From NCBI RefSeq assembly GCF_044704955.1, contig NC_091984.1:148118001-148182000 (forward strand): a stretch of DNA of 64,000 bases, written 5' to 3'. The DNA is from Pristiophorus japonicus. Its lineage: Eukaryota. Under the pieces are notes generated by a model, which did no database searches, had not been told where the DNA came from, and was given only the letters and a program-made list of their open reading frames with translations. A program made the position numbers and the translations under genes. Shown in pieces: positions 4,560 through 49,495 of the stretch. Within the stretch, counting starts at the first letter, position 1. Every line of letters begins with the position of its first letter.

Positions 4560-7500
4560 TAGAACATAAGAAATAGGAGCAGGAGTAGACCATATGGCCC
4601 CTCGAGCCTGCTCTGCCATTTAATATGATCATGGCTGATCCGATCATGGACTCAGCTCCACTTCCCTGCTTGCTCTCCATAACCCCTTATTCCCTTGTCG
4701 GTTAAGAAACTGTTTATTTCTGTCTTAAACTTATTCAATGACCCATCTTCCACAGCTCTCTAAGGCAGCGAATTCCACAGATTTACAACCCTCAGAGAAG
4801 AAATTCCTCCACATTTCAGTTTTAAATGGGCGGCCCCTTATTTTAAGATTATGCCCCAGAGTTCTTGTCTCCCATATCAGTGGAAACAGCCTCTCTGTAT
4901 CCACCTTGTCAAGCCCCCTCATAATCTTACATGTTTCGATAAGATCACCTTTCATTCTTCTGATTTCCATTCAGTATAGGCCCAACCTACTCAACCTTTC
5001 CTCATAAATCAATACCCTCATCTACAGAATCAACCTAGTGAACCTTCTCTGAACTGCCTCCAAAGCAAGTATATCCTTTCTTAAATATGGAAACTAAAAC
5101 TGCACGCAGTATTCCAGTTGTGGCTTCACCAATACCCTGGATAACTGTAGCAAACACTTCCTTGCATTTATACTCCATCCCCTTTGCAATAAAGGCCAAG
5201 ATTGCATTAGCCTTCCTGATCACTTGCTGAACCTGCATAATAACCTTTTGTATTTCATGCACCAGGACCCCCAGTTCCCGCTGTACTGCAACACTTTGTT
5301 ATTTTTCTCCATTTAAATAATAACTTGCTCTTTGATTTTTTTCTGAAAGTTTATAACCTCACTGTTTCCAACATTATACTCCATCTGCCAAATTTTTGCC
5401 CATTCACTTAGCCTGTCTATGTCCTTTTGCAGGTTTTTTGTGTCCTCCTCATACCTTGTTTTTACTCCTATCTTTGTATTGTCAGCAAACATGTCTACAT
5501 TACACTCGGTCCCTTCATCCAAGTCGTTAATATAGATTATAAATAATTGGGGCCCCAGCACTGATTCCTGCGGCACCCCATTAGTGACTGATTGCCAACC
5601 CGAGAATGAACCATTTATCACGATTCTGTTTTCTGTTAGTTAACCAATCCTCTATCCATGTTTATATATTACCCCAACTCCGTGAACTTTTATCTTGTGC
5701 ATTTAATGTGGTACCTTATCAAATGCCTTCTGGAAATCCAAATAAATCACATCCACTGGTTCCCCTTTATCCACCCTGCTTATTACATCCTCAAAGAATT
5801 CCAGAAAATTTGTCAAACATGACTTCCCCTTCATAAATCCATTCTGACATTGCCTGACTGAATTATGTTTTTCCAAATGTCCTGCTACTGTTTCTTTAAT
5901 AATGGACTACAACATTTTCCCAACAACAGATGTTAGGCTAACTGCTCTATAAGAACATAAGAATTAGGAACAGGAGTAGGCCATCTAGCCCCTCGAGCCT
6001 GCTCCGCCATTCAACAAGATCACGGCTGATCTGGCCGTGGACTCAGCTCCATTTACCCGCCCACTCCCCGTAACCCTTAATTCCCTTATTGGTTAAAAAT
6101 CTATCTATCTGTGATTTGAATACATTCAATGAGCAAGGCTCAACTGCTTCCTTGGGCAGAGAATTCCATAGATTCACAACCCTCTGGGAGAAGAAATTCC
6201 TTCTCAACTCAATTTTAAATTGGCTCCCCGTATTTTGAGGCTGTGCCCCCTAGTTCTAGTCTCCCCGACCAGTGGAAACAACGTCTCTGCCTCAATCTTG
6301 TCTATCCCTTTCATTATTTAAAATGTTTCTATAAGATCACCCCTCATCCTTCTGAACTCCAACAAGTAAATACCGAGTCTACCCAATCTATCATCATAAG
6401 GTAACCCCCTCATCTCCGGAATCAGCCTAGTGAATCGTCTCTGTACCCCTCCAAAGCTAATGTATCCTTCCTTAAGAAAGGTGACCAAAACTGCACGCAG
6501 TACTCCAGGTGCGGCCTCACCAATACCCTATACAGTTGCAGCAGGACCTCCCTGCTTTTGTACTCCATCCCTCTCGCAATGAAGGCCAACATTCCATTCG
6601 CCTTCCTGATTACCTGCTGCACCTACAAACTAACTTTTTGGGATTCATGCACAACGACCCCCAGGTCCCTCTGCACCGCAGCATGTTGTAATTTCTCCCC
6701 ATTCAAATAATATTCCCTTTTACTGTTTTTTTTCCCCCAAGGTGGATGACCTCACATTTTCCAACATTGTATTCCATCTGCCAAACCTTAGCCCATTCGC
6801 TTAACCTATCTAAATCTCTTTGCAGCCTCTCTGTGTCCTCTACACAACCTGCTTTCCCACTAATCTTTGTGTCATCTGCAAATTTTGTTACACTACACTC
6901 TGTCCCCTCTTCCAGGTCATCTATGTATACTGTAAACAGTTGTGGCCCCAGCACCGATCCCTGTGGCACACCACTAACCACCGATTTCCAACCCGAAAAG
7001 GACCCATTTATCCCGACTCTCTGCTTTCTGTTAGCTAGCCAATTCTCTATCCATGCTAATACATTTCCTCTGACTCCACGTACCTTTATCTTCTGCAGTA
7101 ACCTTTTGTGTGGCACCTTATTGAATGCCTTTTGGAAATCTAAATACACCACATCCATCGGTACACCTTTATCTACCATGCTCATTATATCCTCAAAGAA
7201 TTCCAGTAAATTAGTTAAACATGATTTCCCCTTCATCAATCCATGTTGCATCTGCTTGATTGCACTATTCCTATCTAGATGTCCCGCTAGTTCTTCCTTA
7301 ATGATAGCTTCAAGCCTTTTCCCCACTACAGATGTTAAACTAACCGGCCTATAGTTACCCACCTTTTGACTGCCCCCTTTTTTTAAACAGAGGCGTTACA
7401 TTAGCTGCTTTCCAATCCTCTGGTACCTCCCCAGAGTCCAGAGAATTTTGGTAGATTGTAACAAATGCATCTGCTATAACTTCCGCCATCTCTTTTAATA

Positions 7501-16809: not shown

Positions 16810-19060
16810 CAGAAGCCCACACAAATGGAGGTTTGTCCATGACCTACGAGCTGTGAATGAATCTACTATATTCTCACAATGCTTAAAGAAGGATTTGGAA
16901 TGAAGTATCCCGGAATGCTTTCCAGAGTCTTAGGCAGCCCCTCACTTCAGCACCAGCCTTGGGATTACCAGATTACACTCAGCTATTCAACTTATTTGTG
17001 CATCACAAGTCGGGTTTTGCACAATCTGTTTTGACTCAGTTACATGGGGACAGGCAGCGGCCGGTAGCGTATTTCAGTACCCAACTAGACCCAGTGACAC
17101 GCGGACTACCAAGATGTCTTCCTTCGTTGGCAGCAGCTTATTATGCTATGCAACAGGCTCAGACAATAACTCTAAATCATCAGACCATTTTGTATATCCC
17201 ACACTCTGTCGAGATTTTACTTACTAAATGTGCCACCCAACACCTAACCTCTGCAAGAACCACTAAATATGAAGTCGAACTGTTATCAAATCCGAACCTT
17301 ATCATCAAAAGATGCACTACCTTAAATCCAGCCACTCTACTCCCCACGGAAGAAGACGGCGAACCCCATTCATGTGAAATGGTAACCGAATTAGTGACTA
17401 AACCACGTATCAATCTAACAGATGTACCAATGTGTAACCCTGATTTAGTGTACTATGTTGACGGATCAGCCCTACGAAATGATAGGGGCCAACCTAGAGC
17501 GGCTTATGCAATTGTAATCCAGTTTAATGTTGTCGAAACAGTCTCTCTTCCAGACTCCTTTTCAGCCCAACAAGCCGAATTGTTTGCGTTAATTCGAGCC
17601 TGTATTCTGGCTGAAGGACAAACAGTTAATATCTACACTGACTCCAGGTATGCTTTTGGGGTATCACATGACTATGGACAAATTTGGAAGATTCGCGGGT
17701 ACCTGACTTCTTCAGGAACCCCTATCAAAAGTGGAAAATCTTCTGCAAGCCATTCAATGCCCCTTGAAACTTGCCATTATCAAATGCCAAGCACATACAG
17801 GCCAGTCGAATGAGGTGGCACTTGGGAATGCCAGAGCTGATAATGCAGCTAAGTCAGCAGCTGTGTCAAAAGGGGGGATGCAGGTGTCATTGTTCCCACT
17901 AAGGAAAAATAATTGCTCAGTCCCGCCACCCACTATTAATGACGTGCTGACCTTTCAGACACAGGCCAGTACGGAGGAGGTGGTGACCTGGACGAAGGAT
18001 CAATGTTATAAAAATCCAGAAGGAATATGGGTTCACCACGACGGCCGTGTGGTGGCCCCTAGATCCTTACTTCCATGGATAGCCCGATGTGTTCATACAT
18101 TCACACATGCAGGCAAAGGGGGATTGGCAGATTATATTTTGGCAACTTGGTATGCACCAGGTATTTCGGCAATTGCAAAACAAATCTGTGAAAATTGTGT
18201 TACCTGTCAGACAATGAATCCGGGTAAGACGGAAAAAGTAGAATCTGCCTCCCACCCAAATCCAGTCGGGCCTTTTGTACATTTACAAATGGATTTTATT
18301 GAATTACCTATGTGTATGGGATTCAAGTATGTATTAGGTATTGTAGATGTGTTCTCGAGATGGATTGAAGCCTTTCCATGTAAAAAGGCCAATGCCACTA
18401 CTGTTGCTAAATGTTTGTTAAAGGAAATCGTACCGTGCTTCGGAATCCCTGCCATGCTTTCTAGTGATAACGGGAACTGTTATAAGAGAAATGTGTAAAG
18501 CTTTGCAGGTTAATCAACGTTTTCATTGCAGTTATCATCCACAATCAGCTGGATTTGTTGAAAGATATAATGGAATGCTTAAAAATAAGCTGGCAAAATT
18601 ATGCAATGACACTGGACTGAAATGGACAGAACTGCTGCCTTTAGCTTTGATGGTAATGTGATCTGCAACCAACAGAACAAAAGGCCTGTCACCGCATGAG
18701 ATAGTTATGGGACGTCCCCAACGACTACCTTTTACAGCACCATTTACTGCAAAACAAATGGACATCCACAAAATGGAGGAAAATATGTTGAATTATTGTA
18801 TTGCACTAACCAAATGTATTTCCAGCTTTCATTCACAGGTAAAGGGAGCTCAAGTCAAGCCAGCGGAAGGAAGTGTCATAACCTGGAGCCAGGGGAATTT
18901 GTTTACATCAAGATTTTTAAAAGAAAAAGCAGTCTACAGCCAAGATTCGAAGGACCATACCAGGTCTTGCTGGCGACCAATACTGCAATCAAGGTAAAGG
19001 AAAGACCAACATGAATCCATGCATCCCATTGCAAACGGGCACCCGACCAGGAGGAAGGGA
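16810..19060 (+). pseudogene. pol: ERV pol remnant (RT fragment, connection, RNase H, integrase)
   Basis: KWRFVHDLRAVN at ~16823; SAPALGLPDY..RPVAYFS; RNase H YVDGS/SAQQAEL/IYTDSRYAF; IN HHCC, LQMDFI, SSDNG, YHPQSAG.VER, GPY. Frameshifts and stops; YxDD core missing. Confidence 0.9.
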
Positions 19061-29247: not shown

Positions 29248-29601
29248 TACTGAAAATCATATTGGACTGTTGTATAAACATCTGCAGTGCAGGATTGCCG
29301 CACATTCAGCACTGAAATGGTTAACAGTAAGAGTTCGTAAAGACTGAGTGTCCCGTTAAGACGCTGTTCACTGGCAGGAAGCTCGAACTGTAGATGGGTG
29401 GATACAGGGGAAACAGGCTCAGCAGTGAGAAAGCTCAGATCACACACAGATCGGGAGAACTTTATCAGGGAACATTGCGGCACACTTATATCAACATACT
29501 TCAGCAAGGCTTCATGTTGGGTGTCGGTGTAGAAGCTTCTAGATTGCATTTAAAAGCTTGCTGCCCAGCACCGGGGTGAGGTCAAGGGTGAGGCTACAAT
29601 T

Positions 29602-31187
29602 TGTAAGGGGTGATTTGCAAAGGGTCAGCTTTCCCTTCTGACCTTATATGAGTGGTCCCGAATCGCTCCCACACCCTTGGTTCTAGACACTGGAATTATG
29701 AAGGGACTGTGACAGACTTGGACAGACAATCGGTTTCAAGGTAGGAAGCAGGTATGGCTTTATTGTGTTTAAAAAGAAGTAAAAGGCACACCTTTAATAA
29801 CACACACACAGATCAATACACACTGAAGGGTACAACACATTGAATAAAATGTCAAATTACAGCCTGTGGGGAAAAGAATACCGCTTAAACTCTAAATGGG
29901 GTAAAGAGGAGAATGCAGATACATTTACACAAGTTATCCCAGCCTCCCCCCTCCCAATTCCCCTAACTAACTAAGTTATAGCTCTGAGGGTTCAGGGGCC
30001 ATGCTCACCAATCCCTTTAGACAGTTGCCGGTGAATCGTGGTTTCGGGGTTTGCTGCACTTGGCCTCCTAGGTGAGCTGTACCCCGGACGGAGGAGAGGA
30101 CTTCGGACTGCGTAGTCTTCAGTTGGGGTGCGTCCGTTGATGCGGTAATTTGCGTTTCGGATGTATGGGATAAGTAGCCACTTTCTTTGGTTTTAGTTAG
30201 TCCTTTTAGGTAATTTCTCACCCGTTGGCTGTTCAGAAGTAGATTGTAGAGTGGAGATAAATGTTGATTCTTCGGTTTTTGCCGAGTTGGTTTTGGTTGG
30301 TCGTTTTGCTGGTTGTGGTGGCCCGGGTTTGTCAATTTGGTTGCTGACAACCTTCCATTTCATGGGCCTCGTGCTCGGTCGGTCCTTGACGATTTCTTGT
30401 AGGTTGCTTCACGACTCCATTTCTTCACTCCGGCTGCTTGTGTCTGTCTGTGTTCATTTCGAGTCTGTGTCCTGTTCGAGTCTGTGTCCTGTTCGAGTCT
30501 GTGTCCTGTTCGAGTCTGTGTTCATTTCGAGTCTGTGTTCCTTTCGAGTCTGTGTTCTGCTAGTCCTGTGTTCTGCTACTTCTGTGTTCTGCTAGCTTTC
30601 CTTGTAAAACTGGGGGATAGATATATCCCAAAAAAAGGCTCCGTTATCTCCCATCAAATCTCTTGGGCTCTGTTTAAACTGTTCTGTCCATTGATTTTCA
30701 AATATCTCCTTTGTCAGCAGTAACTCGATTAGGGTGTGAGAATGTGCTATCACTGGTTTTGCATTGTTTTAGGATTGTCCAGTTTTTCTGACCATGATTT
30801 CCATTGTGCTTGATTGGGTAATTCGATTATCTCTTAGAGGGTGAATAGCCTGGGGTCCTTAATACATGAATTTGCTTCAGACGTTGGCCCCACCTCCTGT
30901 ATTTGGTAACTCTTTTTCGCAGCCAAAATATTGTAGAATCTTAAAATCGATATGCTCCTTCCCATAGATGTTTAGGGTATCTCAAGCTTCTGTAATTTAG
31001 GTCCATTTTGAATTCCCTTTCCTACGAGTCCAAACACTGGGGGGGGGTCTCCATGAATGCATCCCCTTTTAACCCCCGCAGGCTTCGTCTGCCCCTTTAA
31101 ACTCATTTTAAAAGCCCAGAAAGGGATTCTTCTCCTCTGTAGGGGAAAGGTACCTGGAATCTTTGCGAGATATTGGTAAATTCTACA
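29602..31187 (-). repeat. 3' LTR (1586 bp)
   Basis: Direct repeat of 37705-39238; preceded by PPT CAGGGGGAA (31196-31188); AATAAA at 29764-29759. Confidence 0.95.
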
Positions 31188-31746
31188 TTCCCCCTGTGAT
31201 ACCATATCACTTATGGTATCATCTTCGAGGTGAGCAAAGTTCCTGACTCCCAAGAGATAACCTTCTCCGTAAATTAGCTAAACTAATACCCAAAATGCAT
31301 TACACTTATGTAACATCACCATAGATGCACACTTTTCCCTTTACAGGTACAAACTTTTTACATTTATACCCTCCCAGCTTGGAGGGGGTTCAATCACTAC
31401 AATTGTATTTCAGCACAGTTACATTTCATTTCAGTTACATTATATTCACCAGCATATAGGCAACGTACAACCACATTACAGAAGGGAAAAAAACATAGAT
31501 TAAAATTAAACAACATCAATTGGTCTCCTGAGGTTTGTCCATTACCCGGTAATGTCTGGATCCTGCCCTTGAGAACTGCTCTCAGGCTGGCTGACACACA
31601 AGACAAACTCAAAATAATCACCTCAACATTACTGCAACATTAACCTCAATTCTAAACGAAACCTTAAAATGTAAAATGGTGCAGTCAGCTGCCTTAAACT
31701 AAAATTAGAGCTATGTACAACCTCCACCCGTCTCCGGGTGGCCTGG

Positions 31747-34700
31747 TTAGTCCCTGTCAGGCCCATGCCTTGTGCGGCCTGATAGCCGCCTGGGTGCTAG
31801 GGTTTCCCCGCAGCCGGTGAGCTGGAGACCCTTGTCTCTGGGACAGCTCATTGCTACTGCTCCTGTGAGACCCTCACCGCTGGAGGCGGCTGGCTGGTGG
31901 TCCCTACTCTGAGCGGCCTCTGTACTTCTGACCTTCGGCCTTTCCTGTCGGGCTGCCCTTCTCCTAGGGTAGAATCGCTGAGGCTCAGATGCCAGTGACC
32001 ACAGTATCTTTGGCCGTGGTGTACGGAGGGTCCTTCTCAGGGCTTGGGTTACTGGGGGTGCGTCCGAATCCCAAACGATGGGTGGGATAGCCCCTCCAGT
32101 ACTGCAATTCACCGCCACTATAGGCACGGTTTCTGAGCCTGCCACATTCCCTGTGGCCCTCCACCGTCGGGGGCGGCCAACGGAGGGTCCCTGTCCTGAG
32201 GACGGTTCACCCCTCCCGGCTGCCCTCTGTGCTTGGCTGACCCTGGGTTGTACAGCTTGCACTGGTTGATGTGGAACCACTTAGTACGGTGGGGCAGCTT
32301 TATGGCACAGACCATCGGGCTTGCCTTGTCCACAATGCTGTATGGCCCCATATATAATGCTTCAAAAACACTGACCTGAGCATAGTTCCTCACCATGACC
32401 TGGTCCCCTATCTCCCATTCGTGGTGTTTGCTAGGTTCTAGCAGCAATTGGTTCCCCTGATGCTGTCTGCCCATGTTACTAGCAGCCTGCCAGTGAATCT
32501 GTTTGAGGTGTTCAAACAGGTTCCTGACAAACCGGTCCCGGTTCACCTCTCTGAGCTGACCTTCTGTGAGCACCGGGGTTCGGATATGGGTGGGGTTCCG
32601 CATGATCCGGCCAGTCATGAGCTCGTATGGGGAATATCCGATGCTCTTTGACTGGCTGGGCTCGGATCCCCATTAGGACCAACGGTAAGACCTCCACCCA
32701 CTTTTGGGGTGAGTCTCTCGTTTCCTTCCGCAGCTTTTCTTTAATGGTGCAGTTTAAATGCTCCACAATACCGGATGACTGTGGATTGTGGGCAACGTGC
32801 CATTTCCCCTCAATGCCGAGCACCTTAAGGGTTGCCTGCATTACCTGCCCGGTGAAATGGCTCCCCTGGTCCGACTCCACATACTGTGGGAGTCCCCACT
32901 GGGAGAACACTTCCCTCACTAGAATCTTAGCTGTCCCTCGTGCGGTGGCTGTTCGGCAGGGGAAGGCTTCAACCCATTTTGAGAACACGTCCATCAGGAC
33001 TCGGAAGTATTAGTAGCCTCCCTGGGCGGTGAGTAGGGGCCCGATGTAGTCAATTTGGATTGACTGCCATGGTCCCTCTACCCTCCTGACGTGTCCTAGG
33101 GACACCTTCCTTTTCTGGGGGTCAGGGTTGTTCGTAGCACACACCAGGCAGTTCGCACAGAACTCGCGGACATCCTCCTTGAGTCCCGGCCACCATCCTG
33201 CCTGTTCCACCCGTTGCCAGGTGGTCTCAGGCCCGGGGTGTCCCGCTCCTGGACCCTCATGGGCCAGTTTTAGGAATTCCCTCTGGTGCTGCTGTGGCAC
33301 GACCCATTGTCCCTCTTTAAACAGCATGCCTTCCTTAACGGTAATGGCTGCTGTGCCGTACGGACCTTCTACTCTCTCTCCTCTAGCTAGCACATTCAGG
33401 ACAGCTTTCAGGACTGGGTCCTGTGCCTGAACTGTTTTTAAGTCCGGGGCCAAAGCTATACCTGTACTCACCGCTGCCCTGTTCTTATTCTTGACCGCTG
33501 CTATGCGGCCGGTGTCATAGGGGTCCCAGAACTTTCCCGTGCGGGCACCTTCTTTGGCCAGTTTGTCAGCCTGTTGGTTTCCCTCTGCTAGGGGTTCAGT
33601 TTTTGAATGGGCCTTCACCTTATGTATGTAGACCTTTCTTTCTTCCCCCAAGATTTTCTCCAGCAGGGGCTTGATTGCCAGGGGTCTCCCATCAGCGGAC
33701 ATGTATCCGCGACGGGACCAGAGAGCCAGGTACTCCGTACATGAATTGCAGGTGAACATACTGTCCGAGCAAATCGTGTACGGAGTAGGGAATTCCTCGG
33801 GGTGGATCACCACGTACATTACGGCGGACAGTTCAGCGTGCTGGGCCCTCATGGTGCTGGGCAGCTTGATTGCCAGGGCAATATCTGCCCTTGGGTCATA
33901 GACTCCGCACCCAGTGAGTCATTCGCCAACAGATACCGTGCTGGACCCGTCCACGTAGATGTCCCGGCCTGTAGGGTGTAACCCAGCCTGAAGGCCAATG
34001 CTCACCTCCCATACCCCTTCTATGGAGCACCTGTGGGCTTTCCCAGGATAGATTAGGTTGGCTGCGAGCCTTGATCACGGGGGCCTTCTACTCTGAGGTC
34101 CATCTGGGAGAGGAGCAGGGTCCAGCGAGCAATGCGGGCACTGCTCACCGTCCTGTCCTTAATCCTCCCATCTAGGAGCATCTGAGTCGGTGTGTGGTGG
34201 GTTAGGAGTGTTAGAGGAGACCCTTCCGTGAAGATGAAAGATCTTTTCACTGCCCAATGTGTGGCTCGGAGATGTCTCTCACAGTTGGAGTACCACTTCT
34301 CCACATCTGTTGGGATACTGGAGGAGTAAACCACTAAGGCCAGTAAGGCCGTGCTGCTCTTGAAGCAGCACTGAGCTCAAATTGTCCCCGCTGGCTGCCA
34401 CCTCCAGGAAAAACTCCTTTCCTACATCTATCGTACCTGCAAGTCCTTCTTGAGCTGATTAAATGCTGCCTCGCAACCCTCATCCCAGTCCCACTCTACA
34501 CCCTTGTGTAGGAGCCTGAGCAGAGGGGCTGCAGTGGCTGCATAATCCTCAATGAAGTCTCTGTAGTACCCGGTGAGTCCTAGAAAGGATCTTACCCCTG
34601 TCACTGTGTTGGGGGCTGGTAACTCCTGTACTGCCTCCCTTCTAGCCTTGTCTATGGCCCTTTCCCCAGCACGCACAGTCAGCCCCAGGAATTTGACTTC

Positions 34701-35870
34701 CTTCTGGCCGACCTGTGCCTTCTTGGGGTTTACTTTAAACCCTTCTTCTTTTAGCAGCTCCAGCAGCTCAGCCAGCAGTGGGCCATGCTCCTCCCCCTGA
34801 TCGGTGAACAGGAGCAGGTCATCCACATACTGCACCAACTGCTGGGGTCTGCTGAAGCCCTTTAAACAGTTCGCCATGCATTGGTGAAAAATGCTGGGGC
34901 TGTTGTGGAAGCCTTGGGGAAGACAGTTCCACGTGTATTGTTGGCCCTTAAAGGTTTTAAAGGAATGGACCAGAACCCATTTGAAATGTCCAGCACCGTG
35001 AAAGTGGTCGCGGATGCTGGAATACTCCCTATGAGATCCGCTACGGCTGCTACAGTGGGTGCACAGGCAGTGATATTCTTATTTAGTATTCAATAGTCCA
35101 CGGTGGCCCTCCATGAGTTGTTCGGTTTCTTAACCGGCCACAGTGGAGAGTTCACACGGGTGGCTATCGGTCTTAACACCCCTTGCTCTACCAGTGATCC
35201 CAGCGCCGTTGTCAGGTCTGCCTCTGCCTCCCTGGGGAAGTTATATTGCTTTTGTGGTCGGGTCATGGGGTCCCCTACTATACTAACTTCCAGCCCCTGT
35301 TACCCTACCACAGTCATGTTTGTGGGTGGCGAATGCTGCAAGGTGTGCCCGTACATATGCCTGGTACTCCACTGGGGTGTTACTGACCAGTAATTCCAAG
35401 TCATAACCGTCCTTTGGCTTCACGGTACACAATGTTCCCTTGGCCCCTTTTTCTGGGATCACCGCCACCTCACCTTCCCTGTCAGTCACTATGGCTCCCC
35501 ATAGACAGTGGTTCCTGAGATCCACTAGGATCTGGTGGGCAATGATAAAATCAGCCCCCAGGATCCCTTTTCCCTTCTGCTCCCATTCCATCAGGACACA
35601 CTTCCATTTGGTTTTGAGTGTCCCTAACTGAATGGTGAGCAGGATGGAAAACGAACCAGTTTGCTCATTGCCTGTGAACCCCACTAGACTGTACGGGACC
35701 CCGTTCGATAGAGGTGAGGTAGCTGGGTTATCTGCATATACAAGGGTGCTGGAAGCACCAGTATCTAGCAGGTAGGTCCCTTTCACTTTCTCCACCTCCA
35801 TCGTAACGCAAGGTCTCTTCCAGGAATCATACTCTCGGGAACACAGGTACACAGGCTGAGCTGGCTCTAG
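31747..35870 (-). pseudogene. pol: pro-pol polyprotein (protease, RT, tether, RNase H, integrase), frameshifted
   Basis: LLDTGAS; FTVLDISNGFWSIPL; QYTWNCLPQGFHNSP; QYVDDLL; tether with FLEVAAS..VSSARIARWTLLL; RNase H YVDGS/AQHAEL/ICSDS/EGNQQAD; IN H..H, C..C, IQIDYIG, ESDQG, PQSSGIVE, GPY. Confidence 0.9.
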
Positions 35871-37703
35871 TCATGCATCTGGGTGGGTTGGAGCAGAGGG
35901 TTTTACCGTACCGGCTACTGCACCAGTTGCGATAGCTACTGCTCCCTGTCCGTTTATGAGTGTCTGTAGGGCGGCTACGAGTGTCTCATATGAGTCGGGT
36001 GTTCCTGCCCCGGCCTTACGGGCTGGGGCTGAAGTGGCCTTTCCCTTAGTCCCTTTCCATGGGTTCCTACAGTTCTTCCTCCAGTGCCCACTTTTCCCAC
36101 ACCCAACACACTCGCCTCCTTTATGGGGAGGGTTCCCACTTTCCTGATGCCACTCTCTCTTGCCTTAGCTGGGTTTAATCTCATGGACCCTCCCTTTAGA
36201 GGAGGGCTCCTCTGTCCCTCTACCGTTCCGGTAAGCCAGGGTCAACTGTCTGACCACTGTCTCCTCGGTGGTTCTGGGATCTCTTGGATCGAACCAGACC
36301 TCGACTTTTGCCTTTACTCCAGGTAAGCTGTTTGCCACCAGGCTGCGGAGCCAGTGAGCCAGCTCGTTAGGGTTCAGGTGGGCCCGGTCAAGAACCCCAC
36401 TACAGGCCCTTTCGTAGACCGGCCACAACCTGTCGGCGAAAGCCTGTGGAGTCTCCCCATAGAGCTGCACTGTTTTCTCCACTCGGGAGAAAGGACTCCC
36501 GTCGTTCATACCCATGGCCTCTGGAACCTCCTCCTTAACTGTAGCGTACGTGTTTCGCCCCTTTCTGCTGTCTGCAGAGAGGGAATGGCACAGCTTGGTG
36601 TCTAGTGAGAAGAGCAACAGCTTAGCCTGCTCCGAATCATCGCACCCGTTAATATCCCCTGTGTGTTCCACTTCCAGGAAGTGTACCGAGGGATCCCCCT
36701 GTTGGGTGAGCTTACTTAGGTGGCCTATCATAGCCCTCAGTTTTTGGGTGTCGTGGGGGACTACGAAGTTGCATTCTAGGGGTCCTGCTGCCCCATTGGC
36801 ATCAGGCGGGCCAAACTTCTGCTGCCGGACCGGGTCCATTGGCCCTGGTTTCGGCCCTTCTTGTATTGGCTTGCCCTCTTCCCCCTGCTGCCAAGCCGAA
36901 TTAAAACTCGGGGCTGCCGGTGTTAGTAGTTCGTAATCCTTGCCTGCCCCGCACTCTGGCTGACACCCCTGCTGCCCGGGGCCATTCCTGGGAGCTACAG
37001 GTGGTGACTGAGGGGTTTCTCCTTGCCCAACCAGGTGTTCCTGGGCTAAACCCGGGTTTATCAGGCACACCATGCCTTTAGCCCAGGATAGAGCAAGGTT
37101 CAAGCTTTGGATCTGCTGCTGGCAGCGGCCGTGGTCTCCTGGCTCAAATTCCCTGGTACTGGCTACCTTATAGGCTACCTGAATGTGTCTCACCCTCTCC
37201 CCATACTCTTTAACTTGCTTGGCGAGGCAGGAATTCTCTTCCCGCAACGCCCGTTTGCTATTCTTGGCTTCAATAATCTGACACCGTAAAAGGTCCAGTT
37301 GGGTTTTGTGCCTTTCTTTAGTGAGCTCTCTACTTTCCTTTAACTGTCCCACCTCTGTCCACAACCTTTCCCCGACTGTGGCCCTTGCGCTGGACCTCTC
37401 TTCTGCCTGTCTCAATACTCCCTTTAATTTCTCATTCTCCTCATCTCGAAGCCGGGTCTGTTGCTGAAGGCAAATTAGCCAAATGGCCTTCTCTATCGTC
37501 CTTTTATGGTCCTTGTTATCGGTCCATTGAGCTGCAGCATCTTCTGGATGCTCAGCATACAATAGATCGATTACCCACTCCTTAGCCACATTTACCCTCT
37601 TAAACACATATGAGGAAATCTCCTCTTCCATTTTGCTTTGTTTCCTGAAACCAGTCTCTCTCTTATCACGTCCCTTGTACCAGTGTCCTATCTGGGTTGC
37701 CAT
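35871..37703 (-). pseudogene. gag: gag (coiled-coil N-terminus, capsid, CCHC knuckle, PSAP), single premature TAA
   Basis: The 512-aa ORF stops at TAA 36167-36165, but the same frame continues GKREW...CVGCGKSGHWRKNC...KPSAPTHPDA to TGA at 35873-35871. Confidence 0.88.
37685..37702 (-). promoter_or_regulatory. Primer binding site, tRNA-Arg
   Basis: TGGCAACCCAGATAGGAC, 2 nt after the LTR; 16/18 match to the complement of vertebrate tRNA-Arg(CCG) 3' end (TGGCGACCCAGATGGGAC). Confidence 0.75.
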
Positions 37704-37704
37704 G

Positions 37705-39238
37705 TGTAAGGGGTGGTTTGCAGAGGGTCAGCTTTCCCTTCTGACCTTATATGAGTGGTTCTGAATCGCTCCTACACCCTTGGTTCTAGACACTGGAATT
37801 ATGAAGGGACTGTGACAGACTTGGACAGACAATCGGTTTCAAGGTAGGAAGCAGGTATGGCTTTATTGTGTTTAAAAAGAAGTAAAAGGCACACCTTTAA
37901 TAACACACACACAGATCAATACACACTGAAGGGTACAACACATTGAATAAAATGTCAAATTACAGCCTGTGGGGAAAAGAATACAGCTTAAACTCTAAAT
38001 GTGGTAAAGAGGAGAATGCAGATACATTTACACAAGTTATCCCAGCCTCCCCCCTCCCAATTCCCCTAACTAACTAAGTTATAGCTCTGAGGGTTCAGGG
38101 GCTATGCTCACCAATCCCTTTAGACAGTTGTCGGTGAATCACGGTTTCGGGGTTTGCTGCACTTGGCCTTCTAGGCGAGCCATACCCCGGACGGAGGAGA
38201 GGACTTCGGACTGCGTAGTCTTCAGTTGGGGTGCGTCCGTTGATGCGGTAATTTGCGTTTCGGATGTATGGGATAAGTACCCACTTTCTTTGGTTTTAGT
38301 TAGTCCCTTTTGGTAATTTCTCACCCGTTGGCTGTTCAGAAGTAGATTGTAGAGTGGAGATAAATGTTGATTCTTCGGTTTTTGCTGAGTTGGTTTTGGT
38401 TGGTCGTTTCGCTGGTTGTGGTAGCCCGGGTTTGTCAATTTGGTTGCTGACAACCTTCCATTTCATGGGCCTCGTGCTCGGTCGGTCCTTGATGATTTCT
38501 TGTAGGTTGCTTCACGACTCCATTTCTTCACTCCGGCTGCTTGTGTCTGTCTGTGTTCTGTTCGTGTCTGTGTTCCTTTCGAGTCTATGTCCTGTTCGAG
38601 TCTGTGTTCTGCTAGTCCTGTATTCTGCTAGCTTTCCTTGTAAAACTGGGGTATAGATATATCCCAAAAAAAGGCTCCATTATCTCCCATCAAATCTCTT
38701 GGGCTCTGTTTAAGCTGTTCTGTCCATTGATTTTCAAATGTCTCCTTTGTCAGCAGTAACTTGATTAGGGTGTGAGAATGTGCTCTCATTGGTTTTGCAT
38801 TGTTTTAGGATTGTCCAGTTTTTCTGACCATGATTTCCATTTTACTTGATTGGGTAATTCGATTATCTCTTAGGGGGTGAATAGTTCCCCCAGACAGTCT
38901 GGGATCCTTATTACACGAATTTGCTTCAGACGTTGGCTCCACCTCCTGTATTTGGTAACTCTTTTTCGCAGCCAAAATGTTGTAGAATCTTAAAATCGAT
39001 ATGCTCCTTCCCATAGATGTTTAGGGGATCTCAAGCTTCTGTAATTTTGGTGCATTTTGAATTCCCTTTCCTATGAGTCCAAACACTGCGGGGGGGGGTC
39101 TCCATGAATGAATCCCCTTTTATCCCCCGCAGGCTTCGTCTGCCCCTTTAAACTCATTTTAAAAGCCCAGAACGGGATTCTTCTCCTCTGTAGGGGAAAG
39201 GTATCTGGAATCTTTGCGAGATATTGGTAAATTCTACA
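37705..39238 (-). repeat. 5' LTR (1534 bp)
   Basis: Direct repeat of 29602-31187. Confidence 0.95.
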
Positions 39239-39439
39239 AATTAGCCTCAGTGTACCGGGGCCAGGCAGGGTCACTACTCCCAAATGATCCCGAGACCTCC
39301 TGGAAGGTCAGAGTGCATGGACAATGGGCGAGGGTCAGGATCAGGGCCCTCCCACTTCAATGAAAGAAAGCCTTGAATTTATATAGCACCTTTCACAAAC
39401 TCAGGACATCCCAAAGTGCTTTACAACCAATTGCACACA

Positions 39440-40111: not shown

Positions 40112-42850
40112 ACAGAGGGATGATATGTTAGAAGGATCATCAAATGAGGCCATGTGGGTTAAACTGATTAACATAAAAGGGGCAATCACATTGCTGGGTG
40201 TGTAATATAGATCCCTAAACAGTCAGAGGGAGATCGAAGAGTAAATATGTCGGCAAATTGCTGAGAAGGTCAAAAACAATCGGCCAACAATAGTCGGGGA
40301 TTTCAACTCCCCTCACATTAACTGGGATGGAATCAGTGTCAAAGGTATAGAGGTCCCAGAATTCTTCAAATGCATTCAGGAGAACTTTTATAGCCAGTAC
40401 GTAGCAAGCCCAACAAGGGAGAGGGCGGTTCTGGGCTCAGTTTTAGGGAATGAAGCTGGGCAGGTGGGAAAGATATTTTGGTGCTAGTGATCATAATTCA
40501 GTTAGATTTAGCGTAGTTATGGAAAAGGACAAAGATGGAGCAGGAATAAAGGTTCTCAATTGTGGTAAGGCCCATTTTACTAAGCTGAGAGGTGATTTAG
40601 CAAAAGTGGGCTGGAAACAGCTACTTGAAGGTAAATCAGTGTCAGAGCTGTGGGAGGCATTCAAGGGGGAGATAGTAAGGGTTCAGAGCAAGTATGTTCC
40701 CACAAAGGAAAAGGGTGGCACTCCCAAATCTAGTTATGAGGAAAGATTGGATCGGTTGCAGTACAGTGGGACCTGGGGGTACTTGTGCATGAAACACAAT
40801 AGGATAGTATGCAGGTACAGCAAGTGATCAGGAAGGCCAATGGAATCTTCGCCTTTATTGCAAAGGGGATGGAGTATAAAAGCAGGGAAGTCTTGCTACA
40901 GCTATACAGGGTATTGATGAGGCCACACCTGGAATATTGCGTGCAGTTTTCGTTTCCATATTTACGAAAGGATATACTTGCTTTGGAAGCAATTCACAGG
41001 AGATTCACTCGGTTGATTCTGGAAATGAGGTGGTTGACTTTAGAGGAAAGGTTGAGTAGGTTGGGCCTCTACTCAATGGAATGCAGAAGAATGACAGGTG
41101 AACTTATGGAAACATATAAGATTATGAGGGGGCTTGACAAGGTGGATGCAGAGAGGATGTTTCCACTAATGGGGGAGACTAGAACAAGAGAGCATGATCT
41201 TAGAAGAAGGGGCCTCCCATTTACAACTGAGATGAGGAGAAATTTCTTCTCTCAGAGGATTGTACACCTATGGAATTTGCTGCCTCAGAGAGCTGTGGAA
41301 GCTGGGACATTGAATAAATTTACGACAGAGATTGACAGTTTCTTAAATGATAAGAGGATAAGGAGTTATTGGGAGCGGGGAAGTGGAGCTGAGTCCATGA
41401 TCAGATCAGCCATAATTTTATTGAATGGCGGAGCAGGCTCGAGGGGCCATATGGCCTACTCCTGTTCCTATTTCTTATGTTCTTATGTTGAAGGTAAATC
41501 AGTGTCAGAGCAGTGGGAGGCATTCAAGGGGGAGATAGTGAGGGTTCAGAGCAAGTATGTTCCCACAAAGGAAAAGGGTGGCACTCCCAAATCTAGAGCC
41601 CCTGGATGTCGAAGGGCATACAGGGTAGGTTAAGGCAAAAAAGGGAAGCTTATGTCAGATACCCAGAGCTAAATACTGCAGAAAGCCCAGAGGTGTATAG
41701 AAAGTGCAGGGGTGAAATTAAAAAGGAAATTAGGAATGCAAAGAGAGGGTATGAAAAAATATTGGCAAGTATAGTCAGGAAAAACTCAAAGATGTTTAAT
41801 AAATACATGAAAAGCAAGAGGATAACTAAAGAAAGAGTGTGGCCTATTGGAGACCAAAAAGGTAACCTGCGTGTGGAGGCAGAAATGTGGGAATAGTTAT
41901 AAATGAATACTTTGTATCTACCTTCACAGAAGAGAGGGACGATGCAGACATTGTAATTAAGGAAGACAAGTGTGAAATATTTGATGAGATAAACATAGTG
42001 AGTGAAGAAGTATTAAGGGGTTTAGCATATAATCTATTCAATGTTGTTAAGTGAAGCAAGGGAGGAAATAGCAGAGGCTCTGACCATAATTTTTCAATCT
42101 ACCCTGTTTCCAGGTGAGGTGTCGGAGGACTGGAGGACTGCTAACATGGTACCTTTGTTTAAAAAGGGGGAAAGAGATAGGCCGAGTAATAACAGGCCAG
42201 TCAGCTTAACCTCGGTGGTGGGAAAATTATTGGAAACAATTCCGAGGGAGAGGATAAATTGTCATATAGAAAGGGACGGATTAATCAAGGACAGTAAGCA
42301 TGGATTTGTTAAGGGAATGTTGTGCCTGACTAACGTGATTGAATTTTTTGCGGAGATAACAAGGAGGGTCGATGAGTGTTGCATTTTTGATATAGTCTAC
42401 ATGGATCTTTGCAAGGCTTTTGGCAAGGTCTCACATGGCAGAAAAGTAAAAAGCCCATGGGATCCAAGGGCAAGTGGCAAGTTGAATCCAAAAATGGCTC
42501 AGTGGCAGGAAGCAAAGGGTAATGGTCAACAAGTGTTTTTGTGACTGGAAGGCTGTTTCGAGTATTGTTCCGCAGGGCTCAGTACTAAGTCCCTTGCGCA
42601 TTGTAATATACACCAATGATTTAGAATTCAATGTAGGGGACATGATTAAGAATTTTCTGATGATACAAAAATTGGCTGTGCGATTGATAGTGAGGAAGAA
42701 AGCTGTAGACAGCAGGAAGATATCAATGGACTGGTCAGGTGGGCAGAACTGTGGCAAAAGGAATTCAATCCCGAGAACTGTGAGGTAATGCATTTGGGGA
42801 AGTCTAACAACGCAAATGAATACACATTACATGACAGGACACTGAGAATT
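40112..42850 (+). mobile_element. CR1 ORF2 (EN-RT) with a nested CR1 3' insertion (40734-41487)
   Basis: EN (GDFN, SDHN) and RT motifs; the nested copy has ORF 40809-41633 and a ttcttatg tail. Confidence 0.88.
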
Positions 42851-45645
42851 CCCTGGATTCTTGGGAGGTTCCAGCAGTTTGGAAATCTGCAAATGTAACG
42901 CCCCTATTTAAAAAAGGAGGCAGACAAAAAGCAGGAAATTATAGACCAGTTAGCCTAACATAACTGTGGTTGGGAAAATGTTGGAATCCATTATTAAAGA
43001 AGCAGTAGCAGGACATTTGGATAAGCAAAATTCGGTCAGGCAGAGTCAGCATGGATTTACGAAGGGGAAGTCATGTTTGACAAATTTTCTGGAGTTCTTT
43101 GAGGATGTAACGAATAGGGTGGATAAAGACTTCCAGCAGGCATTTGACAAGGTGCCACATAAAAGGTTACTGCACAAGATAAAAGTTCACGGGGTTTGGG
43201 GTAGTATATTAGAATGGATAGAGGATTGGCCAATGAACAGAAAACAGAGAGTCACGATAAATGGTTCATTCTCGGGTTGGCAATCCATAACAAGTGGGGT
43301 GCTGCAGGGATCAGTGTTGGGACCCCAACTATTTGCAATCTATATTAATGATTTGGATGAAGGGACCGAGTGTAACGTAGCCATGTTTGCTGATGATACA
43401 AAGATGGGAGTAAAAGCAATGTGTGAGGAAGACACAAAAAACCTGCAAAAAGGCATAGACAGGCAAAGTGAGCTGGCAAAAATTTGGCAGATTCAGTATC
43501 ATGTTGGAAAGTGTGAGGTTATGCACATTGGCAGAAAAAAATCAAAGAGCAAGTTTTATTCGAATAGAGAAAAATTGCAAAGTGCTGTAGTACAGCGGGA
43601 CCTGGGGGTAATTGTGCATGAAACACAAAAGGATAGTATGCGGGTACAGCAAGTGATCAGGAAGGCCAATGGTTTCTTGGCCATTATTGCAGTGGGAATG
43701 AAATATAAAAGCAGGGAAGTCTTGCTTCAGTTATATAGGGTATTGGTGAGGAATACTGCGTGCAATTTTGGTTTCCATATTTAAGAAAGGATATACTTGC
43801 TTTGGAGGCAGTTCAGAGAAGGTTCACTAGATTGATTCCAGAGCTGAGGGGGATTGTCTTTTGAGGAAAGGTTGAGTAGGTTGGGCATCTACTCATTGGA
43901 ATTCAGAAGAATGAGAGGTGATCTTATCGAAACATGTAAGATTATGAGGGGGCTTGACAAGGTGGATGCAGAGAGGATGTTTCCACTGATAGGGGAGACT
44001 AGAACTAGGGAACTGAGGTGAGAGTGAGATGAGGAAGAATTTCTTCTCTCAGAATCTTTAATCTCTAATTATTCTCTAATCTCCGGATTACTCCCGGTGC
44101 CACGAGCTAGTGAATACAGAAACAGGAGGATAGAGCAGATGAATGCGTGGCTGGAGAGATGGTGCAGGTGGGACGCTTTAGTTTCCTGAGGCATTGAGAC
44201 CGTTTCTGGGGAGGTGGGACCTCTACAAACCGGCCGGGTTGCTCCTCAACAGAGCCGGGACAATATCCTCGAGGGGAGCATTTGTTAGTCATGTTGGGGA
44301 GGGTTTAAACTAGCTTGGAAGGGGGATGGGAACCTGAGAATAGATTCAGTAGGGAGGGGACTAAAGCTGGAATTAGAAAGCAAAAATAAATAAAGTGAGT
44401 TTGAAGGAGAGAGGAAACAAGCAGATAAAAAGGGTAAAAAACAAATTCAAAGACTCTTTGTCTAAATTAGAAAATAGATGAGTTGACGGCACAAATAGAT
44501 ACAAATGAATATGATCTGATAGCCATTACAGAGACGTGGTTGCAAGGTGACCAGGACTGGGAACTAAATACTCAGGAGTCCTTGACAATCCGGAAGGACA
44601 GACAGAAATGTAAAGGAGGTGGGGTTGCTCCATTGATAAAGGATGGAATCACTGCAATAGTGAGAAATGATATTGGCTCAAATGATCAGGATGTTGAAAC
44701 AGTTTGGATGGAGATAAGGAATAATAAAGGGAAAAAGTCACTGATGGGCGTAGTCTATAGGCCCCCTAGCAGAAGCAACTCTGTTGGTCGGAGTATAAAG
44801 CAAGAAATAGTGGTGGCTTGTAAAAAGTGAACAGCAATAATCATGGGTGATTTTAACCTCCACATTGATTGGATAAATCAAATCAGGCAGGGTAGTCTTG
44901 AGGAAGAGTTCATAGAGTGCATAAGAGATGGATTCCCTGAGCAGTATGTAACGGAACCAACCAGGGGGCAGGCTATCTTAGATCTGGTCCTATGTAATGA
45001 GACAGTATTAATAAACAATCTCCTAGTAAAGGATACCCTTGGACTGAGTGATGATAACATGGTTCAATTTCAAATTCAGATGGGGTGGGGGGGTGAGAAA
45101 GTTGGATCTCTAACCAGCGTACTAAGCTTAAATAAAGGAGACTACAAAGGTATGAGGGCAGAGTTGGCTAAAGTGGACTGGGAAAATAGATTAAAGTATA
45201 GGACGGCTGATGAACAGTGGCGTACATATAAGGAGATATTTCACAACTCTCAAGAAAAATATATTCCAGTGAGGAGGAAATGGTGTAAAAGAAAAGATAG
45301 CCATCTGTGGCTAACTAAAGAAATAAAGGACGGTATCCAATTAAAAACAAGGGCATACAAAGGGTCCCAAACCAGTGGGAGGACTGAAGATTGGGAAGCT
45401 TTTAAAAGCCAGCAAAGAATGACTAAAAAAGTGATTAAGAAAGGGAAGATAGACTATGAAAGTAAACTAGCACAAAATATAAAAACAGATAGCAAGAGTT
45501 TCTATAGGTATATAAAAAGGAAAAGAGTGGCTAAAGTAAATGATGATCCCTGAGAGGACAAAACGAGGGAATTAATAATGGAAAACATGGAGATGGCAGA
45601 AACTCCGAACAAATATTTTGTATCAGTCTTTAGAGTAGAGGACAC
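42850..45645 (+). mobile_element. Stack of CR1 fragments (RT 42850-44055; ORF1 end + EN 44075-45645)
   Basis: ORFs 42966-43784 (FADD), 44483-44830 (AITETW, VYRPP), 44843-45553. Confidence 0.88.
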
Positions 45646-46368
45646 TGAGATGAGGAGGAATTTCTTCTCTCAGATGATTGCAAATCTGTGGAATTCGCTG
45701 CCTGAGAGAGCTGTGGAAGCTGGGTCAGAGAAGATATTTAAGACAGAGATAGATAGTTTCTTAACACTCAATGGAATAAGGGGTTATGGGGAGCGGGCTG
45801 GGAATTAACCTGAGTCCATGATCGGATCGGCCATGATCGTATTAAATAGTGGAGCAGGCTCGAGGGGCCCTGTGGCCTACTCCTGCTCCTATTTCTTATG
45901 TTCTTTAACTGGGGAGGAGTGGGAATAATTGGGTAATTCTTTCAAAGAGCCGGCACAGGCACGATGGGCTGAATGGCCTTCTTCTGTGCTGTAAGATTCT
46001 AGGCTGTGAGCGTGGTTCACAGTTTTCTCCCGTGTCGTTAACAAACGTACAGCTGTGACAACCTCCCTCTTTCACTTCCTCTGTGGGTGAAGTTTCATTC
46101 TTCCGATCTGACAGTCTCTTCAGTTATTTTTTCCATGGAGGATTTCTGCTGTGGTCTGAGCATCTAATAATAACTGTCCAATCAGGCAGAATAACAGCAG
46201 CTCGGACCGGCTAGGACAGTGGACCCAGGCTCAGTGCTGACCCTGCAACGTCCTCCTCACCAACATCTGAGGACTTGTGCCAAAAGTGGGAGAGCTGCCC
46301 CACAGACTAGTCAAGCACCAGTCTGACATAGTCCTACTCACAGAATCAGACCTTTCAGCCAATGTCCT
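45645..46368 (-). repeat. Segmental duplication module, copy C (inverted, partial)
   Basis: Reverse complement of ~56620-57350, including the CR1-tail junction ttcttatgttctttaa|ctggggaggagtggga. Confidence 0.88.
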
Positions 46369-46612
46369 ACTGCCCCCTCTCTCCGCCCCCAAAATCCCAT
46401 GAATCCTTAAACAGGAACCCTTTTGAAGAACAGTGTGTTCTGAGATCCTGGCTGGGAGAGATTCTGTGCTGAGAAAACAATCGCTACCATTCGTGAAAAA
46501 GTACTCAGTAAAATAATGGAACTAAAGGTGGACAAGTCCCCTGGACCTGATGGCCAGCATCCTAGGGTCTTTAATGAAGTGGATGCATAAATTGTGGATG
46601 CATTGGTTGAAA

Positions 46613-49495
46613 TCTATCTTTCCTTTCTTTATTGCTTCTTAGTCATTCTTTGCTGTCGTTTAAAATTTTCCCAATTTTCTAGTTTCCCACTAACCTTGGC
46701 CACCTTATACTCATTGGTTTTTAATTTGATACTCTCCTTTATTTCCTTGGTTATCCACGCCTGGTTATCCCTTCTCTTACCGCCCTTCAAAAGATAGACA
46801 AGAAGGGAAAGGAGGTGGGCTAGCTCTGTTAATAAAGGATGATATCAGAGCAGTTGTGAGAGATGATATTGGATCTAATAAACAAAATGTTGAATCATTG
46901 TGGATGGAGATTAGAGATAGTCAGGGGAAAAAGTCACTGGTGGGCGTAATTTATAGGCCCCCAAATAATAACTTCACAGTGGGGCGGACAATAATCAAGG
47001 GAATAATGGAGGCATGTGAAAAAGGAACGGCAGTAATCATGGGGGATTTTAACCTACATACCGATTGGTCAAATCAAATCGCACAGGGTAGCCTTGAAGA
47101 GGAATTCATAGAATGCATACGGGATTGTTTCTTAGAACAGTATGTTACAGAACCTACAAGGGAGCAAGCTATCTTAGATCTGGTCCTGTGTAATGAGACA
47201 GGAATAATAAACGATCTCCTTGTAAAAGATCCTCTCGGAATGAGTGATCACAGTATGGTTGAATTTATAATACAGATTGAGGGTGAGGGAGTCGTGTCTC
47301 AAACGAGCATACTATGCTTAAACAAAGGGGACTACAGTGGGATGAGGGCAGAGTTGGCTAAAGTAGACTGGCAACACAGACTAAACGGTGGCACACTTGA
47401 GGAACAGTGGAGGACTTTTAAGGAGCTCTTTCATAGTGCTCAACAAAAATATATTCCAGTGAAAAAGATGGTCGGTAAGAGAAAGGATAACCAGCCATGG
47501 ATAACCAAGGAAATAAAGGAGAGTATCAAATTAAAAACAATGCATATAAGGTGGCCAAGGTTAGTGGGAAACAAGAAGATTGGGAAAATTTTAAACGACA
47601 GCAAAGAATGACTAAGAAAGCAATAAGGAAAGGAAAGATCGATTATCAAAGTAAACTTGCGCAAAACATAAAAACAGATAGTAAAAGCTTTTACCGATAT
47701 ATAAAACGGAAAAGAGTGACTAATGTAAATGTTGGTCCCTTAGAAGATGAGATGGGGGATTTAATAATGGGAAATGTGGAAATGGCTGAGACCTTAAACA
47801 ATTATTTTGCTTCGGTCTTCAAAGTGGAAGACACAAAAACCATGCCAAAAATTGCTGGTCATGGGAATGTGGGAAGTGAGGACTTTGAGACAATCACTAT
47901 CACTAGGTGGGTAGTGCTGGACAGGCTAATGGGACTCAAGGTAGACAAGTCCCCTGGTCCTCATGAAATGCATCCCAGGGTATTAAAATAGATGGCGGAT
48001 GTTATAGCAGATGCATTCGTTATAATCTACCAAAATTCTCTGAACTCTGTTTAAAAAAGGGGGCAGAAAAAAGGCAGTTAACTAAAGGCCGGATAGTTTA
48101 ACATCTGTAGTGGGGAAAATGCTTGAAGCGATCATTAAGGAAGAAATGGCCGGACATCTAGATAGGAATAGTGCAATCAAGCAGACGCAACATGGATTCA
48201 TGAAGGGGAAATCATGTTTAACTAATTTACCGGAATTCTTTGAGGATATAATGAGCAAGGTGGATAGAGGTGTACCGATGGATGTAGAGTATTTGGATTT
48301 CCAAAAGGCATTCGACAAGGTGCCACATAAAAGGTTACTGCAGAAAATAAAGGTACGCGGAGTCAGAGGAAATGTATTAGCATGGATAGAGAATTGGCTA
48401 ACTAACAGAAAGCAGAGAGTTGGGATAAATGGGTCCTTTTCAGGTTGGCAATCGGTGATTAGTGGTGTGCCACAGGGATTGGTGCTGGGGCCACAACTGT
48501 TTACAATATACATAGATGACCTGGAAGAGGGGACAGAGTGTAGTGTAACAAAATTTGCAGATGACACAAAGATTAGTGGGAAAGCGGGTTGTGTAGAGGA
48601 CACAGAGAGGCTGCAAAGAGATTTAGATAGGTTAAGCGAATGGGCTAAGGTTTGGCAGATGGAATACAATGTCGGAAAATGTGAGGTCATCCACCTTGGA
48701 AAAAAAAACAGTAAAAGTGAATATTATTTGAATGAGGAGAAATTACAACATGCTGCGTTGCAGAGGGACCTGGGGGTCCTTGTGAATGAATCACAAAATG
48801 TTAGTTTGCAGGTGCAGCAGGTAATCAGGAAGGCAAATGGAATGTTGGCCTTCATTGCGAGAGGGATGGAGTACAAAAGCAAGGAGGTCCTGCTGCAACT
48901 GTATAGGGTATTGGTGAGGCCGCACCTGGAGTACTGCGTGCAGTTTTGGTCACCATACTTAAGGAAGTATATACTAGCTTTGGAGGGGGTACAGAGACGA
49001 TTCACTCGGCTGATTCCGCAGATGAGGGGGTTACCTTATGATGATAGATTGAGTAGACTGGGTCTTTACTCGTTGGAGTTCAGAAGGATGAGGGGTGATC
49101 TTATAGAAACATTTAAAATAATGAAAGGGATAGACAAGATAGAGGCAGAGAGGTTGTTTCCACTGGTTGGGGAGACTAGAACTAGGGGGCACAGCATCAA
49201 AATACGGGGGAGCCAATTTAAAACCGAGTTGAGAAGGAATTTCTTCTCCCAGAGGGTTGTGAATCTGTGGAATTCTCTGCCCAAGGAAGCAGTTCAGGCT
49301 AGCTCATTGAATGTATTCAAGTCACAGATAGATAGATTTTTAACAATAAGGGAATTAAGGATTATGGGGAGCGGGCGGGTAAGTGGAGCTGAGTCCACGG
49401 CCAGGTCAGCCATGATCTTGTTGAATGGCGGAGCAGGCTCGAGGGGCGAGATGGCCTACTCCTGTTCCTAATTCTTATATTCTTATGTTCTTATG
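46613..49495 (+). mobile_element. Young CR1 LINE (ORF2 EN-RT; 453-aa open RT/C-terminus) nested in an older CR1
   Basis: ORFs 46856-47611, 47497-47991, 48110-49471; same subfamily as 5951-9259; host CR1 sequence resumes at 49496. Confidence 0.95.

Follow-up and report, generated by a model that had tools for sequence, protein, structure and literature searches.

The provirus on the minus strand of a 64,000-nt window from Pristiophorus japonicus is, in the preferred reading, a dead member of an endogenous retrovirus (ERV) family that has no env and is nested among env-bearing relatives, in the snakehead retrovirus (SnRV)/class III part of the retrovirus tree. The env gene was likely lost once, and the family then likely multiplied by germ-line retrotransposition in a host that is likely a shark; a probability of about 0.85 is given to this reading. 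The window is the whole stretch of DNA that was analysed (positions 148118001-148182000; genome total 5.9 Gb), and the features of the element, in window coordinates, are as follows.

29602..39238, minus strand: whole element, a provirus of 9,637 nt, read from 39238 to 29602
39239..39242, with its partner at 29598-29601, strand not applicable: target-site duplication AATT
37705..39238, minus strand: 5' LTR, 1,534 nt, TG...CA, with AATAAA at 37867 and an internal 17-nt tandem repeat
37685..37702, minus strand: primer-binding site for tRNA-Arg(CCG), directly adjoining the 5' LTR, 16 of 18 nt matching here
35874..37631, minus strand: gag, predicted to be helical and likely coiled-coil in its N-terminal half, with a single CCHC knuckle; a stop at 36167 breaks the frame
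35867..35873, minus strand: in-frame gag/pol stop, TGA then CTAG, conserved among siblings
35286..35870, minus strand: aspartic protease (Pfam E=1e-4), LLDTGA at 35771
34431..35299, minus strand: reverse transcriptase (RT; RVT_1 E=3e-24), broken by frame changes
34056..34430, minus strand: tether, a degenerate Gypsy-type RNase H (PF17917, RT_RNaseH, E=1.9e-9 at 34376-34056)
33520..33970, minus strand: second RNase H, of the cellular type (PF00075 E=5.9e-16), D/E/D/H/D motifs present
32121..33300, minus strand: integrase with H2C2 zinc finger, DDE core, GPY motif and SH3-like end, broken here
31283..31712, minus strand: about 430 nt in place of the env region, which takes about 2.9-3.0 kb including env in env-bearing sisters
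31188..31196, minus strand: polypurine tract
29602..31187, minus strand: 3' LTR, 1,586 nt, TG...CA

The ends of the element agree with the initial annotation, which had described LTRs of about 1.55 kb, a 4-bp target-site duplication, a tRNA-Arg primer-binding site and a very short leader. The two LTRs measure 1,534 and 1,586 nt, and AATT flanks both sides. The primer site is directed at the 3' end of host tRNA-Arg(CCG) plus CCA; the window copy keeps 16 of the 18 nt, and in 12 of 19 siblings the site is an 18/18 complement of the end of the host tRNA-Arg(CCG) gene plus CCA. On direct reading, a gag-frame ATG at 37703-37701 lies partly within the primer-binding site, both in this copy and in most siblings, and the following ATG stands 74 nt past the LTR. 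The 17-nt tandem repeat (30429-30600; 38532-38630) is present in unequal copy number in the two LTRs. Divergence of the LTR pair (K2P) is 0.036, or 3.6%; the insertion would be about 80 million years old with the 2.2e-10 per site per year used in Han 2015 (PMC4422223, part available), and about 8 million years old with the mammalian rate.

Protein analyses were performed on stop-free segments, unrepaired. The single CCHC knuckle of Gag, claimed earlier, is present at 36164-35874, with a Pfam score (E=0.02) below the cut-off. The claim of a coiled-coil Gag is plausible at most for the N-terminal half: the single-sequence structural model contains long N-terminal helices, and 43% of residues 50-160 are E, K, R or Q, but the pLDDT of the model is 41. 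All three RT motifs named before were located (LDISNGFW at 34993, LPQGFHNSP at 34922 and YVDD at 34829). The succession of a degenerate RNase H tether and a complete second RNase H was likewise recovered; two RNase H-like domains, not one, were found by Pfam, with the catalytic motifs of the second kept. The window copy is nevertheless dead, because gag carries the stop at 36167, which is seen in none of the 19 aligned siblings, frame changes occur near 35296, 34955, 34085 and 32660, and there are additional in-frame stops.

The stop between gag and pol is of another kind, being kept in every one of the 19 siblings whose codon could be aligned (12 with TGACTAG, 5 with TGACTAA). A TGA-CTA context is a read-through signal in other viruses, and the TGA-CTAG at the gag/pol border is likely to be such a signal here.

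The family is large. In a DNA search with the RT, the best 40 of 4,165 candidates were scored and both halves of 20 were retrieved; these 20 siblings run collinear to the window copy, and the 3' LTR is reached in 18. Their 4-bp duplications are exact in 12 of the 17 with both ends located, with one mismatch in 3 more, and the duplicated targets differ among siblings. Sixteen sibling LTR pairs have diverged by 0.010-0.039. Exact 21-nt words matched at least 314 junctions of polypurine tract and LTR and at least 1,564 LTR starts, with 0 for reversed controls. For the RT, dN/dS is about 0.27 (66 non-independent pairs from 12 env-less copies), a value biased low, with stop-free frames only and CpG decay raising dS. 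Two sharks, Heptranchias perlo (77%) and Scyliorhinus torazame (75%), supply the closest named proteins, and a shark host is therefore likely.

Some copies of the family carry information of other kinds. The locus L003/L051, about 240 kb from the window, has the same flanks as the window element and is a segmental duplicate of this insertion. Near-identical copies on the small contigs C1231 and C113 are segmental duplications or haplotigs, and the sibling L014/L062 has additional tandem LTR copies at both ends. Pol proteins of the clade (P0001, P0003-P0010, P0048-P0049) are labelled NYNRIN-like or Gypsy integrase-like in public databases, and such proteins are therefore missed by searches for retrovirus names.

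The initial annotation held the element to be env-less or env-deleted and left it to the genomic siblings whether env lies between integrase and polypurine tract. In an integrase search, 150 places were scored and 40 were retrieved, mainly in the 66-76% identity band; 10 of these are further members of the family, with DNA identity of about 90% or above, and 30 represent sister families (74-80%). Five env probes were used (SnRV, loki, foamy and two shark Envs; threshold E<=1e-3). None of 30 family copies, nor the window copy, matched any of the five, whereas env-like matches were found in 25 of the 30 sister-family loci in the same genome (two of them marginal, three unusually far downstream). 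The distance from the integrase motif to the polypurine tract is 1,049-1,099 nt in 15/20 siblings with both marks located. Blocks at window positions 31756-31712 and 31283-31228 are shared with 7 of the 14 sister loci compared (L102, L111, L114, L116, L118, L119, L126), and the spacing between these blocks is about 430 nt in the window vs about 2.9-3.0 kb in the sisters, so that about 2.5 kb is missing.

Phylogeny gives the same picture. In an integrase DNA tree, 16 env-less copies form one clade (support 100) within the env-bearing loci, and in an RT tree that includes 9 of the 12 retrieved sister loci the family falls inside the shark clade at 99.9. Homologous gag is present in all 12 of these sister loci and the knuckle in 11, and the sister families share gag, pol and LTR blocks with the env-less family. 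Deletion, and not only absence, of env is supported by the flanking blocks and the nested clade, and env was likely lost once from env-bearing ancestors; we infer the direction and the timing of this loss. A single deletion followed by autonomous retrotransposition is the simplest history. The copies examined number 30 out of several hundred, so a rare env-bearing member of the family, or Env supplied by a helper, may exist.

For an intact copy, the cycle would begin with transcription from the 5' LTR. The first frame would be translated into Gag, extended to Gag-Pol where the TGA is read through; reverse transcription would be primed by tRNA-Arg(CCG) and the plus strand at the polypurine tract. 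The second RNase H would remove the RNA, the tether being presumably structural, and integration would leave the 4-bp duplication. After the loss of env, copies would have spread within germ-line cells by retrotransposition. Both read-through and intracellular spread are what we infer. The mouse families IAP and MusD, as well as ERV-L, are env-less ERV families of high copy number; the same env loss and amplification appear in the present family, in another retroviral clade and another host. In the available text of a preprint, high copy number after env loss is a stated trend (bioRxiv 10.1101/2021.11.23.469661).

The position of the family was examined in RT trees. From 100 rows, 32 (near-duplicates and surplus Gypsy/gamma) were removed first, giving a tree of 68 rows; 21 further rows were dropped for the AU tests and a C20 mixture tree (47 rows), and supports were read by bipartition. 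SnRV was represented by Pol P0054 and genome L088 (10,688 nt), and lokiretroviruses by L089-L091 (recognised from their motif and gene order and from weak similarity to PF00523) plus P0239. Seventeen foamy genomes were retrieved, with five rows in the 68-row tree and three in the AU test; ERV-L, ERV4, Odin and fish foamy-like elements are absent from the trees as named references. In the 68-row tree, the canonical retroviruses without loki are supported at 99.5/100. The family joins frog, coelacanth and other Pols at 92.2/91; this clade joins SnRV alone at 68.6/56, and SnRV plus class III-like rows at 87.8/85. The C20 tree gives 97 each for the canonical retroviruses and for the clade of family, frog and coelacanth, with SnRV in a polytomy, and an exclusive clade of family and SnRV meets borderline rejection in the AU test (p=0.0485). 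The sisterhood with SnRV is weak, and 'SnRV-like' therefore names a grade. On these RT sequences the family is placed among the canonical retroviruses, as a deep-branching lineage in their SnRV/class III part, and not with the lokiretroviruses; the deep branching proposed at the outset is retained, and the best match to lokiretroviruses is not. The marks of canonical Retroviridae were found in the RT within the canonical clade, the dual RNase H and the env-bearing ancestry.

The other domains give less clear results. The RT identity of P0002, a close relative, is 42% to SnRV, 33% to loki and 31-34% to foamy viruses. By BLAST, its tether is 40% identical to loki vs 27% to SnRV, and its integrase 42% vs 36%. 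Trees of RNase H and integrase are poorly supported: RNase H joins loki and foamy at 90.4/40, loki integrase nests among the frog and coelacanth relatives of the family at 92.5/52, and tree support for an integrase close to CGIN1/loki is 52/41, where BLAST ranks loki above SnRV. Searches with representative proteins returned mainly multi-domain Gypsy proteins, and BLAST of Gag against SnRV Gag and loki Gag gave no significant match.

A first case in cartilaginous fish of an env-less lokiretrovirus, or of an Odin-like element, would account for the dual RNase H, the long LTRs, the helical Gag N-terminus and the BLAST ranks of tether and integrase; moreover, relatives are annotated as NYNRIN-like, and loki integrase is placed beside CGIN1 in the available part of PMC7947760. 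It is nonetheless extremely improbable. Loki forms a separate 100/100 clade, and the grouping is rejected by the AU test (p=0.0018). The RT has LPQG, as canonical retroviruses do, rather than the PFG found in the loki rows of the alignment in PMC7947760 (accessible portion). With a loki RT query, nothing above 40% identity was found among the 150 scored places in the genome; a loki pattern search in the genome gave 0, a viral-contig scan for loki found nothing, and none of six chondrichthyan genomes is positive in the portion of PMC7947760 available. A mosaic, in which a canonical RT is combined with a tether, an RNase H or an integrase taken from, or kept alongside, the loki lineage, and thus a distinct basal lineage, is a less remote idea, although still an unlikely one. 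It draws on the BLAST ranks, on the positions of loki integrase and of RNase H in their trees, and on an attachment to SnRV that is not firm. The bootstraps concerned are, however, 40-52, the SnRV branch is long, so that slower evolution accounts for the BLAST ranks, and trees of RNase H and integrase are called difficult in the available part of PMC7947760; such a mosaic would also be compatible with env loss.

That an ordinary Ty3/Gypsy retrotransposon gained an additional RNase H is hardly credible at all. The element has no env, and the top PDB match of P0002 is Ty3 (232 bits, vs 230 for a gammaretroviral RT/RNase H entry), but the RT does not fall within Gypsy in the tree (AU p=0.025), where the RT of Ty3/Gypsy elements belongs, the family has two RNases H vs their single one, and its sisters bear env. 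The initial view of a retrovirus and not an ordinary Gypsy element was thus upheld. Placement in Spumaretrovirinae was tried and rejected (AU p=0.0012 with 3 foamy rows), and the Gag has a knuckle; NGFW and YVDD, which had been read as recalling foamy viruses, are both common to SnRV. A different question is the route of spread. Reinfection with Env provided in trans could have drawn on the env-bearing sisters in the same genome, which share gag, pol and LTR blocks with the env-less copies; these sisters are, however, only 70-80% identical in DNA, and purifying selection on the RT fits autonomous replication, yet fits both routes. This route is considered rather improbable, and env loss followed by germ-line retrotransposition is preferred.

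Among known systems, SnRV and the SnRV-like ERVs (clade Huo; PMC6001957, part available) are the most similar, with one knuckle, a coiled-coil Gag (weakly supported here) and an in-frame gag-pol stop. SnRV has the RT motifs of the window element in its row of the loki paper's alignment, with the 42% RT identity to P0002 given above; a coiled-coil Gag, one zinc finger and suppression of an in-frame stop are described for it in the accessible part of PMC2717909, and direct reading of its genome gave the single knuckle and the in-frame stop. The same part of that source describes foamy Gag as being without a zinc knuckle. SnRV-like ERVs are, as reported in the part of the source available, the main ERV type in coelacanth. 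The family differs from SnRV in having no env, no accessory genes seen, a TGA and not a TAG stop, another primer sequence and a very short leader; it is not a firm sister of SnRV, and its own sister families do carry env. The SnRV primer site is presumably of the tRNA-Arg type. CmiERV lineage I of elephant shark (PMC4422223, part available), compared by description only, clusters with SnRV and has a length of 9.56 kb and an LTR divergence of 0.033, but the Han 2015 screen, in the same part of the paper, counted env-bearing elements only.

Lokiretroviruses (PMC7947760, part available) share the tether plus second RNase H and the BLAST similarity of tether and integrase, but their RT lies in another clade. 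The tether plus second RNase H is common to all retroviruses and is non-diagnostic for loki. Gag of loki Bik-1 has a coiled coil, and loki env is related to paramyxovirus F; the window element is without env, and the Env of its sisters weakly matches loki Env. Odin, described in the available part of PMC9040795 as a sister of loki found in sea anemones, likewise has tether, second RNase H and no env; the window element is set apart by an RT inside the canonical retroviruses (99.5/100, in a tree with no Odin sequence) and by a loss of env, which here came about from env-bearing ancestors. ERV3/ERV4 have a 5-bp duplication, no zinc finger and no GPY/F in the accessible text of PMC4299795, in contrast to the 4-bp duplication, knuckle and GPY of the family.

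The Env of the sisters offers a further lead. Sister Env frames contain a cleavage-like site of basic residues, and a hydrophobic stretch lies C-terminally; their identity to the Envs of another lineage of shark ERVs is about 24%. Their profile matches SnRV Env weakly (HHalign E=2e-4, probability 47%, 344 columns) and loki Env also weakly (E=4e-5, probability 70%, 92 columns). No match to the Pfam fusion-protein family was found in three of three sister Env frames, nor in five Env frames of the env-bearing families L022-L041, and PF00523 gave one sub-threshold match in the genome. The model of sister Env from an 18-row alignment (pLDDT 35) is too poor for a fold search, as is that of Gag (pLDDT 41). 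Because there is no Pfam match and the fold is of low confidence, the F-type identity of sister Env is a lead only.

A large, separate set of env-bearing ERVs (L001, L022-L041), with 12,278 candidates for an Env query, has a two-knuckle Gag in the two loci scanned, and the RT of this set is on the foamy side of the tree with modest support (88/89). The families L022-L041 were rejected as a source of the env-less family (AU p=0.002). The homology of their Env to sister Env, despite a distant Pol, suggests env exchange or deep shared ancestry.

It is possible, though tentative, that the shark clade and its relatives in frog and coelacanth make up a basal canonical lineage that has no name yet, and that this lineage kept a tether and an integrase resembling those of loki together with an Env of the paramyxovirus F type, homologous to those of SnRV and loki. 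If so, the common ancestor of canonical retroviruses and loki would already have had an F-type envelope, contrary to independent env capture. Scenarios of env origin, including an ancestral F-type Env, are considered in the available portions of PMC7947760 and PMC9040795, and foamy Env is F-like by structure in that of PMC11468914. An F-type Env ancestral to all retroviruses, for which present support is weak, could be tested through the many shark Env copies.

Other elements are present in the window. At 16887-18495 on the plus strand, a second retrovirus-like fragment has tether, RNase H, H2C2 finger and integrase core by Pfam, and LINE-type fragments with endonuclease and RT domains, which we take to be likely of CR1/L2 type, lie at 6706-7395 (minus strand) and 40800-49470 (plus strand). 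A viral-contig scan for the family gave no match. In the literature searched, which left most subscription papers and Repbase outside its scope, no description of the family was found; related shark elements may be contained in the supplements to Han 2015, to Xu 2018 and to an anamniote Env preprint.

As the family is not a lokiretrovirus, it does not extend the host range of lokiretroviruses. It fits the known pattern of an ERV that loses env and then retrotransposes, and documents env loss followed by amplification in cartilaginous fish. Its env-bearing sisters still exist alongside it in one genome, which allows the deletion to be mapped and dated.
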